From positions 1 to 64,000 of the IMG/VR virus record IMGVR_UViG_3300027991_000080: a stretch of 64,000 bases of DNA; one strand, 5' to 3'. The notes below the pieces were generated by a model that saw nothing but the letters and a program-made list of their open reading frames with translations, had not been told where the DNA came from and did no database searches. Position numbers and translations under genes: made by a program. How positions within the stretch are numbered: the first letter of the stretch is position 1; every line of letters begins with the position of its first letter. Below are positions 55,146 through 63,178 of the stretch, piece after piece. Source of the DNA: a virus (taxonomy: Duplodnaviria > Caudoviricetes).

Positions 55146-55403
55146 ATGCAGGTAGTCATCACGAAAGGGCAGCTCGAGGCGGTCAAGGCGTGCAACGTTT
55201 ACCTCGACTCCCCAGAATGGGACGCGCTCGAGGAAAGCCTCGTGTACGCGAACTGGGAGGCTACCGTTGAGCGATTGCTGGCAACGCGAGCTGGATCTTC
55301 GTATCTCGCGTTTCTGGTTTCGAGAGAACTCGTTCCGATGACGATGACGGAGTTCAAAGCAGCGCGAACCGCGCGGGAGCGAACGACGACCCATGGCATT
55401 TAG
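55146..55403 (+). CDS. hypothetical protein
   Basis: Operon gene. Confidence 0.6.
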   Translation: MQVVITKGQLEAVKACNVYLDSPEWDALEESLVYANWEATVERLLATRAGSSYLAFLVSRELVPMTMTEFKAARTARERTTTHGI

Positions 55404-55899
55404 AATTGGGCGCAAGTACGCGCAGCACACATATCCGGAGCCTCGCAGAAGTGGCGGCGTTACCCCGGATGAGTTCGCGAGAAATTTTGCGGTCGGTCCG
55501 GCCACTGACACCGACATCACGACGACTACCCCGCTACCGTGGTCTGACGTCGACGTTGGGGCTCCCGGGAACAGTGTGACGATCACTCCGGAGAGTACGG
55601 GTGTAGTCCGCGTCTTGGCGGTGATGACGTTCAAGAACCCTTCTGGAGCCGACACAGTGGATGCGGTCGTCCAGATCCTTCTGGATGGGGTGGCTCAGGC
55701 TTTTCCAAACAATGAGACGTTCACCGTGCCCATCAACGGTGGTCTTGTGGTTCCGATGCTGGTTGAGCTCGATGGGCTCAATGTCGGCCAAGCGTATGCG
55801 ATCGGAATACAAGTAAGCACGAGCGATTCCGCGACTCTGAGAATCGTTCAGGAGTCGTCTTCGATCGAGGTGCAAGAAGTCGAAGAATCGACAGGGTGA
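55393..55899 (+). CDS. beta-sandwich spike-like protein A
   Basis: Shared N-terminal GRKY-x4-YP motif; paralog of the next gene. Confidence 0.7.
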   Translation: MAFRIGRKYAQHTYPEPRRSGGVTPDEFARNFAVGPATDTDITTTTPLPWSDVDVGAPGNSVTITPESTGVVRVLAVMTFKNPSGADTVDAVVQILLDGVAQAFPNNETFTVPINGGLVVPMLVELDGLNVGQAYAIGIQVSTSDSATLRIVQESSSIEVQEVEESTG

Positions 55900-55903
55900 A
55901 GCG

Positions 55904-56422
55904 ATGTCCTTTCGAAGCGGCAGGAGACTAGCGCGGCACACGTACCCGGAGTTCCCCCGGGGCGGAGGAAGCTCGTCCGGACCGTTTGCCCGAAACTACG
56001 CCGAAGGACCCAGTACCGACACAACGATCGATGTCGATCCTGGTATACAGCTACCATGGTCGAACGTCGCGGTGGGTTCTCCGGGTGTGAATATTCCAAT
56101 TACACCTCTGTCCACCGGTGTTGTTCGGATATCCGGAACGATCGTTACTCGCAACGATACCACTGACCCAGAGACTCAGTCTGGTCTGCAGGTGCTCGTG
56201 CAAGTGGACGGAGCGTCTCAAACGTTTCCGTTCTTCGAGGCCCCATCTACTGAAATCGCGAGCGGTCAAGCGATCCCGTTCCTGGCTGAAGTTTCAGGTC
56301 TAGCGATCGGGGTTCAATCGAACATTTCCATTTTGCTCATCGCTCAAGATGCGAACGGAGCCGTACTACAAGAGCTGAGTTCATCGATCGAGGTGATCGA
56401 AGTAGCTGCATCTACCGGTTGA
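55904..56422 (+). CDS. beta-sandwich spike-like protein B
   Basis: ARN.A.GP.TDT.I, LPWS.V.VG.PG, SSSIEV.EV shared with 55393-55899. Confidence 0.7.
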   Translation: MSFRSGRRLARHTYPEFPRGGGSSSGPFARNYAEGPSTDTTIDVDPGIQLPWSNVAVGSPGVNIPITPLSTGVVRISGTIVTRNDTTDPETQSGLQVLVQVDGASQTFPFFEAPSTEIASGQAIPFLAEVSGLAIGVQSNISILLIAQDANGAVLQELSSSIEVIEVAASTG

Positions 56423-56435
56423 ACTGGAGAAAACG

Positions 56436-61300: not shown

Positions 61301-61920
61301 GCGCATCATTGTTTGTAAACGTTTGCAGTGTTCTCGCTGGAGACATAACTGCTTTTTCCGTCGTTTCGAACAATTCGTTGCTGTCCGTAAACTCGATCAC
61401 TACTGCCAACGCAGGTGGATCCACATTCAGATCTACTCAGTTCAACAATCACCCGTGCTTGTTGACTTGTTTTGCTGGTGCCTCTTTCGACGGACCTTCG
61501 TGGCGCAGCTTCAAAGAGTCAGGGGGAACCCGCTCAGCCGGAACCACTGTTCTTGTTCAGGGCGGATACAGCGGAGGAAGCGTCGAAGGGGCTACGCTAC
61601 CTAGCACCGGCACGGTGAACGTATCTCTCAACGGAAACGGTGCAACCACCGGGTACACTGGAAACAACTCCGGAAACCACTACGAGACACCAGGTCTTAC
61701 GGCGCCTCTCACGGTAAAATTGTTAGTAGGCGGCGGAGAGCTCGACGGAGACACTCTGCTTATATCGAAGTCTTCTTTCGGATCTTTCACCATAACTGTC
61801 ACCAATTCAGCGTCTTCCATTCTAGGGGTAATACCATCAGGAAATAGAGGATTCCTGCTAGCTAGGTACAAGGCGTCGGATGGGGACTGGGTGTTCGAGC
61901 AAGGAGGTTTCCTGTCGTGA
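58336..61920 (+). CDS. long collagen-like fibre protein
   Basis: N-terminal GKGRY-x4-YP, ~780-residue Gly-X-Thr shaft, C-terminal head. Confidence 0.9.
58408..60756 (+). repeat. Gly-X-Thr collagen-like triplet repeat
   Basis: [12 protein letters not shown] triplets with Gly-X-Gly interruptions; synonymous codons highly varied. Confidence 0.95.
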
Positions 61921-62186
61921 CAACATGTCTTCTGTTGGCTGCAGTCATTGGCGCAACGCTAATCATGGTGCGCAGCACCGTCATGGCTAGAGTCAGAAAT
62001 ATCTGGCCTGAGATGCTCGGGTGCGCGCAGTGCATCGGTTTCTGGATCGGGGTGACGGCAGGTGCGCTCGGACTCGTTGTCGCTGGGCACGGTCGAATCG
62101 TTGACGCGATCATTGTCGGGTGCGCAAACAGCTTTCTGTCTCTGCTCGCAAACGCGGTTCTCATACGTCTGCTCGAAATGGACTGA
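61917..62186 (+). CDS. DUF1360-like small membrane protein
   Basis: CAQCIGFW motif between hydrophobic helices. Confidence 0.65.
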
Positions 62187-62188
62187 AA

Positions 62189-63178
62189 ATGACGCATCTC
62201 ATCGGAAGACGCGGATACAAGAGCGAGGCGTACCCGACAAGGGGAGCTTCGACTACATCAGGGGGGACTGCACCGCTCTCAAACGTTTTCTACATCGACC
62301 CGCATTCTACAGATGCGGGTCCAGCAGACGGATCCGACGAGCATCCGTTCACCACGATTCAGCAAGCATTTGACGCGGTGTTCCCGGGAACACTGATCGG
62401 TGCCGAACTCACATTCCTCATCACTCCGTGCTTTTTCGGTGACAATGCCGGCGCGCTTGTCCTTCCTGACAACCTGACCGGTCTCTTTATGTCAATCGTG
62501 GGCCTGTCTGGTTCAAACAGACCCATACTGACAAGCGTAGAGTCCTCCGTAATCGGTTCCTCCCCAACGGTCGACACCATCACAGGGGGCGATAACTCGA
62601 GCAATATTTCGATCAGTTTCCAGTCCTGCAGCGTGAACACGATTGACCTGGGAGAGGAAGGGGTAAGCGGGGGGCGCCTGTCTTTCGACGGTGCCCAGAT
62701 CGGACAGATCGACTGCAACGTGTACGAAGTTCTCGCCGTTGCATCGGCGTTGGGTGAAACGCAATGCGCGACACTCGAGGCATACTCGAGCTCCGGACAG
62801 GATTGCACGTGGACAGCTGACGAGATTCGGGTCGACTCAGCTACTCGGTTCCAGATTGCGCAGAACAACGTAACGCTTTCGCTCAACAATCCGACAGTCA
62901 TGTCGAGGATGCCACAGGCGACCATTTCCGTCGCTGTGCCGGTCCTAGCAACCGATGCGCTTGGGTACGTTGACGTGAGCACCGTCGGGACGGAGCTCGA
63001 GGGTATCAACATCGGGGACAGTATCGTCGCCAACCCGACCACTGACCTTGCTGGCGCCGGAGCCGGAAACGGCGGATTCTTGAACTGCAGGGTCTCTGCC
63101 GCGGACACCATTCGATGCGCGTTCGCCGGGGCCTTGCCTGGAGGGGCGGCAAATTTTACATTTGCAAGAGTGAACTGA
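62189..63178 (+). CDS. spike/receptor-binding protein (beta-helix-like)
   Basis: N-terminal GRRGY-x4-YP; FYIDP...DGSDEHPFTTIQQA. Confidence 0.75.
   Translation: MTHLIGRRGYKSEAYPTRGASTTSGGTAPLSNVFYIDPHSTDAGPADGSDEHPFTTIQQAFDAVFPGTLIGAELTFLITPCFFGDNAGALVLPDNLTGLFMSIVGLSGSNRPILTSVESSVIGSSPTVDTITGGDNSSNISISFQSCSVNTIDLGEEGVSGGRLSFDGAQIGQIDCNVYEVLAVASALGETQCATLEAYSSSGQDCTWTADEIRVDSATRFQIAQNNVTLSLNNPTVMSRMPQATISVAVPVLATDALGYVDVSTVGTELEGINIGDSIVANPTTDLAGAGAGNGGFLNCRVSAADTIRCAFAGALPGGAANFTFARVN

Follow-up and report, generated by a model that had tools for sequence, protein, structure and literature searches.

A modular N-terminal peptide on unrelated fibre-like proteins of an uncultivated soil virus family as a candidate virion-attachment tag

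Introduction

How can one virus mount several different fibre or spike proteins on its particle? The question is raised by IMG/VR virus record IMGVR_UViG_3300027991_000080 (Duplodnaviria; Caudoviricetes), a provirus record of 76,740 bp with a CheckV completeness estimate of 95%, whose first 64 kb form the stretch analysed here (hereinafter designated the window). Coordinates marked "genome" count along the whole 76,740-bp record and all others along the 64,000-nt window. Between positions 55393 and 63178, six open reading frames (ORFs, hereinafter designated A to F) start with related peptides of about 16 residues (hereinafter designated the tag). A sequence-only reading of the window had interpreted the tag as a universal capsid-docking element through which interchangeable receptor-binding proteins (RBPs) compete for the same sites. 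Because the same start heads otherwise unrelated fibre and spike bodies, the most likely role of the peptide is that of a plug common to interchangeable host-binding proteins, and we consider it moderately probable, judging from sequence, that it serves these proteins as a common virion-attachment tag.

Results

Seven ORFs begin with the same kind of peptide

All six peptides picked out by the sequence-only reading are present on the + strand at the extreme start of their ORFs and follow the pattern M-x3-4-G-[RK]...Y-x4-Y-P. The corresponding regular expression matches seven times in the six-frame translation of the whole genome, compared with 1.4 ± 1.2 times in 100 shuffles; six of the seven matches lie at residues 6–16 of ATG-started ORFs, and the remaining one contains a stop codon. 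A looser motif search yielded a further tagged ORF with a TTG start beyond the window (genome 71085–71906), which reads MGRIIGRGRHASETYP and continues into a collagen-like repeat, bringing the number of tagged ORFs in the whole genome to seven. Searching the genome with a profile of 37 tags recovers just these seven (E 4e-11 to 1e-9), with no other match up to E = 10. Since the profile matches the seven fibre ORFs only, no protein of the capsid module carries the tag peptide.

The consensus of the 37 tags is M-x-x-[IV]-[IV]-G-R-G-R-Y-A-x-E-T-Y-P (also written MxxxIGRGRYAxETYP), with G6, Y15 and P16 invariant and R7 nearly invariant among the 37 distinct sequences. Three subtypes recur across genomes. 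In the genome studied here, subtype I (FRIGRKYAQHTYP-type) heads two small paralogues, subtype II (IGRGRYAxETYP-type) four proteins and subtype III (LIGRRGYKSEAYP-type) one protein. Between paralogues with the same subtype, 2–7 of 8–10 identical residues are encoded by different codons and nucleotide identity over the 48-nt tag is 54–65%, indicating that the tag is conserved at the peptide level. An element acting at the DNA or RNA level and recent gene conversion were rejected on account of the codon differences between paralogues. A Sec or Tat signal peptide was likewise rejected, as no hydrophobic core can be read from the tag.

The six tagged proteins of the window carry four types of head

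Proteins A (55393–55899, + strand, 168 aa) and B (55904–56422, + strand, 172 aa) are small, beta-rich paralogues (44% identical) with subtype-I tags, MAFRIGRKYAQHTYP in A (55393–55437) and MSFRSGRRLARHTYP in B; in A the tag is followed by a short linker and a small beta-rich head (hereinafter designated head family 1). Protein C (56621–57859, + strand, 412 aa) consists of a subtype-II tag, MTFVIGRGRYARSVYP, a Gly/Ser/Ala linker and a head of ~385 aa beginning PLARQKFIDG. Subtype-II tags also head protein D (57880–58332, + strand, 150 aa, MARVIGRGRYIGETYP), which has a small head of its own family, and protein E (58336–61920, + strand, 1194 aa), in which a Thr-rich collagen-like G-x-y stalk of ~790 aa is inserted between the linker and a C-type head. 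Protein F (62189–63178, + strand, 329 aa) carries the subtype-III tag MTHLIGRRGYKSEAYP, a linker and its own head. The longest ORFs for C and F begin upstream at GTG codons (56465 and 62120, respectively); the ATG starts at 56621 and 62189 are favoured by the presence of the tag, which relatives conserve, and by an ATGA through which the small upstream ORF at 56436–56624 overlaps C.

The sequence-only reading had described each tag as followed by a Gly/Ser linker and one of several different heads. A linker and then a body are indeed found in every protein, whereas the linkers (8–15 residues) are rich in Gly, Ser, Ala, Thr and Pro, least clearly so in D, and the six proteins have four head types rather than six: A/B, C/E, D alone and F alone. 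C and the C-terminus of E share 47% identity over 390 aa (BLASTP E 5e-92), and F resembles C over the first ~60 aa only, that is, in the tag, the linker and a "PFTTI" start. Among tagged proteins of relatives, D clusters only with the one at position 6775 of locus L008, and A has 8 homologues, all with the same tag subtype.

Pfam and PHROG matches are confined to the stalk of E, which matches the Pfam family Collagen (PF01391; 238.9 bits, E 2.7e-72, cut-off 27.2) and, through the collagen repeat only, PHROG tail-fibre families; A, B, C, D and F have no Pfam or PHROG match. The seventh tagged protein (genome 71085) and many tagged relatives also have G-x-y runs. For the head of C there are 66 homologues; none has a name, and every one is encoded on a long contig of viral type. 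It gave no Pfam match at E ≤ 0.01, with PF12708 and PF13229 included, and no PDB sequence match. In the ESM Atlas it scores 0.89 by features to a PF12708 cluster, and its model there (predicted local distance difference test score, pLDDT, 0.66) aligns with beta-helix clusters at a template modelling score of ~0.57 over ~300 residues. The head of C, placed there beside pectate-lyase-like clusters, is probably a right-handed beta-helix, an assignment that we treat as a lead and not as proof. Head family 1 returned nothing in sequence and profile searches against the PDB.

The stalk of E (58400–60750) is Thr-rich with G-x-T triplets, as in BclA. Soil-metagenome contigs show many skips and back-joints within the collagen repeat (window 58520–60718), most likely reflecting assembly ambiguity induced by the repeat, so the exact length of the stalk should be treated with caution. 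The fibre region is found nearly identical in at least 16 soil-metagenome runs of 2018–19, with no RNA runs among those listed; in four soil-metagenome runs, the identical contig pieces of low depth and the joints in the collagen repeat are uninformative on cassette exchange and expression.

Two small ORFs lie within the fibre cluster. A 62-aa ORF between B and C (56436–56624, + strand) contains a CCGSKRCP motif and shares an ATGA with C, its stop codon overlapping the start codon of C. With homologous frames in loci L014 and L039, it is probably a real gene of the cluster, whose product is perhaps a chaperone or assembly factor. An 89-aa hydrophobic ORF (61917–62186, + strand), whose GTG start overlaps the stop codon of E, is predicted to span the membrane several times and is kept in L039 (53% over 69 aa, tblastx), so that the fibre cluster appears to embed a membrane protein. 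Upstream of 56621, 57880, 58336, 62189 and genome 71085 lie A-rich stretches (for example gagaaaaaa-ATG, cctaaaaa-ATG) with no clear Shine-Dalgarno sequence.

The tag persists in relatives while the bodies change

Relatives were retrieved with the 443-aa gene at 49846–51177 described below, giving 31 IMG/VR loci with 43–83% identity. The motif occurs 52 times in six-frame translations of these loci, and 41 of the 52 occurrences are N-terminal ORF starts on the strand of the capsid gene. The 37 distinct tagged proteins of the relatives (137–1819 aa) fall into at least 19 body families unrelated by BLAST and include collagen stalks, a probable beta-helix and small heads, eleven of them having collagen-like runs. 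Whole-record searches found tags in relatives without a tag inside the fetched flanks, and five CheckV-complete relatives, two with terminal repeats, each encode 1–6 tagged ORFs of 137–1819 aa.

The three subtypes are coupled to bodies to different degrees. Across genomes, the subtype FRIGR[KR]xAxHxYP and head family 1 are found exclusively with each other; IGRGRYAxETYP heads at least 15 head families, and the subtype-III tag three different heads, including different heads in L025 and L007. The sequence-only reading had suggested searching viral metagenomes for the motif. Among 2.9 million IMG/VR contigs, the back-translated consensus GRGRYAxETYP turned up 22 times, on 13 contigs; 12 of these contigs had already been found through the capsid gene and the thirteenth is syntenic with the fibre region. 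As all 13 tag-bearing contigs belong to it, the tag appears private to one virus family.

In lineage L014, both fibres begin with the same diverged tag, MG[YS][LI]xGxKNRSPxTYE, written in different codons; it retains G6 and T14-Y15 and lacks R7, Y10 and P16, and no canonical tag occurs in this 98%-complete genome. Distant homologues of the C head have different N-termini in front of the same Gly-rich linker and a "PLSR-x-FIDGG" start. One of them lies on contig L037, which also encodes counterparts of the Arg-rich membrane protein and the capsid candidate as well as proteins of 261 and 300 aa; gene order is unchanged and identities are 25–33%, with the capsid module at 25–31%. The same head on lineage-specific N-termini, and paralogues that change their tag together, fit the prediction of a common, co-adapting attachment interface.

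In L031 (16680–17966), a branch at 43% identity without the canonical tag, two adjacent proteins of ~210 aa share the N-terminal stretch ..YA[VL]R[ST]AQ[MS]IG.NVSV.G, which may be that lineage's own fibre tag.

The same comparison bears on whether the shared start could be a functionless remnant of common ancestry or of a cassette-exchange hot-spot. Tandem paralogy would suit this explanation, A/B and C/E being clear duplicates. Yet the tag stands on at least 19 unrelated bodies, its residues are kept despite codon differences, the nucleotide identity given above is too low for homologous recombination, and G6, Y15 and P16 do not vary among the 37 tags even though the capsid proteins of the genomes concerned are only 65–83% identical. 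Such a remnant is disfavoured and in our estimate highly improbable. The data support instead a tag that is a selected, modular N-terminal element, apparently kept while the bodies behind it are swapped.

A selected peptide could also act transiently, directing its carriers to a membrane, a chaperone, a glycosyltransferase or the place of assembly, after which it would be removed or become irrelevant, much as T4 internal proteins carry N-terminal capsid-targeting sequences. The tag is short, N-terminal and borne by otherwise unrelated proteins, as such a signal would be. Also encoded in the genome are a protein with a transglutaminase/papain-like fold (47194–48027; Pfam E 1.4e-4, just below the cut-off), a rhomboid protease (29246–29911) and large glycosyltransferases. 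However, the lack of a hydrophobic core speaks against Sec or Tat export, no conserved cleavage motif follows the tag, and collagen stalks and beta-helix heads are parts of external fibres rather than internal cargo. The concerted change in L014 and the replacement of the tag in distant relatives fit co-adaptation with a structural partner at least equally well. We consider a transient signal unlikely compared with a lasting attachment tag.

The structural module suggests a tailless virus

The fibre genes lie directly 3' of a capsid and wall-hydrolase module and 5' of glycosyltransferases. The most conserved structural protein of the module, a 443-aa product (49846–51177, + strand) encoded with a GC content at third codon positions of 0.83, is the capsid candidate and one of three candidate docking partners. 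The others are a 201-aa protein encoded directly after it (51267–51872, + strand), which is 61–82% identical in relatives and keeps the same gene order there, including in the distant L037, and a 295-aa protein (51876–52763, + strand) with 47–78% identity in relatives. The 443-aa family comprises 219 clusters at 50% identity.

Sequence searches matched none of the three to a known protein. The 443-aa family has no Pfam domain in 85 members, and the capsid candidate gave nothing in sequence or profile searches against the PDB, no tblastn match in 50,697 GenBank phages and an uninformative result in the ESM Atlas. The 201- and 295-aa proteins have no Pfam, PHROG or PDB match, and hhalign detected no relationship among the three. 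An AlphaFold2 model of the capsid candidate from an 85-sequence alignment reached a pLDDT of 87.5 and a predicted template modelling score of 0.85. An earlier model from 25 close relatives (pLDDT 50) was not used, and the fold search made with it, which had returned weak matches to the PRD1 entries 1yq8 and 1w8x of the PDB, was disregarded. With the good model, Foldseek against PDB and BFVD gave nothing at E ≤ 0.001. VIA-align gave weak best matches (Z 5.3–5.8 over ~120–140 residues) to the capsid proteins of SPV1, PBCV-1, HHIV-2 and HCIV-1, PRD1 P3 and P23-77 VP17, mixed with beta-sandwiches of carbohydrate-binding modules and discoidin domains. The 443-aa protein is, on this modelling, the probable major capsid protein, with a predicted jelly-roll-type core carrying large insertions; such a core would be compatible with a tailless capsid and is not proof of one.

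The replication half of the genome is phage-like, encoding PrimPol, three helicases, AAA_24, a PD-(D/E)xK nuclease, ParB and an integrase. In the structural half, searches of ORFs and six-frame translations with Pfam and PHROG recovered no terminase, portal, HK97 capsid or tail family, absence being unproven in a genome this divergent. There are no Walker-A proteins in this half, the only ones in the genome being the three helicases and AAA_24 of the replication half. No match to a FtsK/HerA-type packaging ATPase or to a terminase was found, and no DNA-packaging motor is recognisable in the genome. What the structural half does encode includes an Arg-rich membrane protein, LysM/peptidoglycan-binding proteins with C-terminal membrane anchors and a GH25 lysozyme. 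The relatives form an undescribed family of large (~55–125 kb) soil viruses, which are probably tailless bacterial viruses with jelly-roll capsids. Matches in metagenome-assembled genomes suggest Polyangiaceae and Binatia as possible hosts. Docking of the tag to the capsid rather than to a tail is plausible, because no hallmark of tailed phages was found and the best capsid candidate models as jelly-roll-type.

A different placement of the tag follows if the virus is a phage with a tail or other appendage, its tail genes having diverged beyond recognition, in which case the tag would dock to a baseplate, adaptor or branching protein. Several RBPs per genome with a short common N-terminal peptide are documented in K1-5/SP6-like and Klebsiella phages (PMC6872550). 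In PHROG, the collagen part of E carries a tail-fibre label, and large ORFs without annotation are present that encode 1015 aa (32497–35544, minus strand) and 836 aa (genome 72382–74892). Set against this, the PHROG matches stem from the collagen repeat alone, the searches of ORFs and six-frame translations returned none of the tailed-phage families named above, and the most conserved structural protein models as jelly-roll-type and not as HK97. Docking to a tail is in our judgement distinctly improbable, less likely still than a transient signal.

Several neighbouring genes are of interest in their own right. The protein encoded at 48250–49740 (+ strand) has an extremely Arg-rich N-terminal half with RRRRRK runs and a membrane-embedded C-terminal half; it is kept directly upstream of the capsid candidate, even in L037, and may condense DNA while anchored in an internal membrane. 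In two relatives, a GIY-YIG-like ORF starting ...FYxHTNxVNGKxYVGQT (L014 12058–13269, L017 11965–13053) separates the homologues of the 201-aa and 295-aa genes; absent from the studied genome, it probably encodes a homing endonuclease. Beyond the fibres lie two large genes (window 63477 to genome 68308), one HtrL_YibB-like and the other with methyltransferase, GT2 and tetratricopeptide repeat parts; we can only surmise that the collagen stalks may be O-glycosylated.

Discussion

The observations can be assembled into a common protein plan of tag, flexible Gly/Ser/Ala/Pro linker, optional collagen-like trimeric stalk and exchangeable distal head. In a docking mechanism, the tag would plug into a site conserved on one of the proteins of the particle (the 443-aa, 201-aa or 295-aa protein, or an adaptor), the linker would supply freedom, and collagen stalks would form trimers. 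The heads would be exchangeable modules for receptor binding or glycan degradation, so that a head acquired by recombination could be mounted without re-evolving the interface. One genome could thereby field five to seven different surface proteins. We infer that the tagged proteins are present in virions and that their tags bind a particle protein, and the identity of that protein is inferred in the same way; competition for one site, mosaic virions and effects on host range are conjecture.

Several points weigh against this reading. No partner is backed by a physical or predicted interaction. A complex prediction with the 36-aa tag region and the monomers of the 443-, 201- and 295-aa proteins (four chains) scored 0.00 in a run that had no controls and would miss a site between subunits, and it counts neither for nor against docking. 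L014-specific substitutions in the proteins of the capsid module were sought as the mark of a co-evolving partner, and no protein stands out. The virion type is read from searches that found nothing and from a model with only weak structural matches (Z ≤ 5.8). Finally, three subtypes, each conserved across genomes, are hard to square with one universal site. The word "universal" in the sequence-only reading was therefore too strong, and several distinct sites fit at least as well as a single contested one. The part of that reading which endures is a modular, selected peptide on exchangeable fibre-like bodies, seen in 37 proteins with at least 19 bodies, restricted to one family and changing in concert in L014.

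In its most extended form, the docking-tag interpretation would make one short tag, possibly a beta-hairpin, the sole interface for fibres and heads on a tailless jelly-roll-type shell. Particles would be mosaics of five to seven proteins that bind receptors or decorate the shell, with a collagen fibre up to ~200 nm, the three subtypes would correspond to three capsid sites, and the tag would be both a marker of host recognition and a display handle. This picture is tentative, and taken as a whole we think it more doubtful than not.

If the tag is indeed an anchor, it would mark every host-recognition protein of an abundant, uncultivated soil-virus family whose proteins lack database-family matches, and a profile of 16 residues would pick out every candidate receptor-binding gene. 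The evolution of host range could then be read from metagenomes as heads swapped behind a fixed plug, and the tag would point to the location of the docking site on a vertex or capsomer. Once a member is cultivated, it would offer a simple handle for decorating particles. The docking-peptide principle, documented for tailed phages and adenoviruses, would in that case extend to a probably new type of tailless bacterial virus.

The proposed arrangement recalls four known systems. Among them, the BclA-type spore glycoproteins have Thr-rich G-x-T collagen stalks and a short N-terminal exosporium-targeting motif, which is processed proteolytically. Common to both systems are Thr-rich G-x-T stalks, a short tag on several paralogues (which in the spore attaches the proteins to a protein shell) and nearby glycosyltransferase genes. 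Unlike here, however, the BclA type belongs to a cellular spore system and not to a virus, and the motif is unrelated; the likeness is one of description, with no homology claimed.

The bacterial virus PRD1 offers another parallel. PRD1 is tailless and contains a membrane, has a 15-kb genome and bears one or two vertex proteins; at its vertex, spike P5 (an N-terminal domain, a collagen-like stretch and a TNF-like head) sits on penton P31, which the N-terminal domain of P5 resembles. A trimeric spike with a collagen-like segment and N-terminal anchoring is what we propose here too. In contrast to PRD1, the genomes here measure 77–125 kb and encode five to seven tagged proteins, and no resemblance of the spike N-terminus to a penton protein is seen, the tag profile matching the seven fibre ORFs only.

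In adenovirus, the fibre tail (FNPVYPY) docks to the penton base (PMC7412204, PMC3457955). There, as predicted here, the N-terminal peptide of a trimeric fibre binds to a capsid of the jelly-roll lineage. The tag consensus does not contain a motif of the FNPVYPY type; the Y-P dipeptide is all that is shared, so the likeness drawn by the sequence-only reading is one of analogy only. No penton-base homologue was recognised in Pfam, PHROG and PDB searches of the structural proteins. Some adenoviruses have two fibre types with the same tail, whereas tagged genes are far more numerous here, and the stalks are collagen-like and not of the adenoviral shaft repeat.

A comparable gene organisation is known from the K1-5/K1E/SP6-like phages and the KP32, KP34, Menlow and PhiK64-1 groups of Klebsiella phages, in which secondary RBPs attach by group-specific N-terminal peptides of 7 to ~20 residues (PMC6872550, PMC13352976). 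There as here, a genome encodes several RBPs with a short group-specific N-terminal peptide in front of exchangeable bodies, which in those phages are often beta-helix depolymerases. This pattern is seen in the present family, with seven tagged ORFs in this genome, 1–6 in five complete relatives, at least 19 body families and lineage variants. The tails of those phages bear an anchor RBP or adaptor whose T4gp10-like branching domain receives the peptide. In the present genome, by contrast, nothing can be recognised as a tail, an adaptor or a T4gp10-like protein, the capsid candidate models as jelly-roll-type, and the tag has an unrelated sequence. A genome here also encodes up to seven tagged proteins, including stalkless ones of 150–170 aa. 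The principle of a docking peptide is thus already known from the adenovirus fibre tail and from the K1-5/SP6 and Klebsiella phage peptides, and what sets the present system apart is the sequence of the tag, the number of tagged proteins, the small stalkless proteins among them and the apparent virion type.

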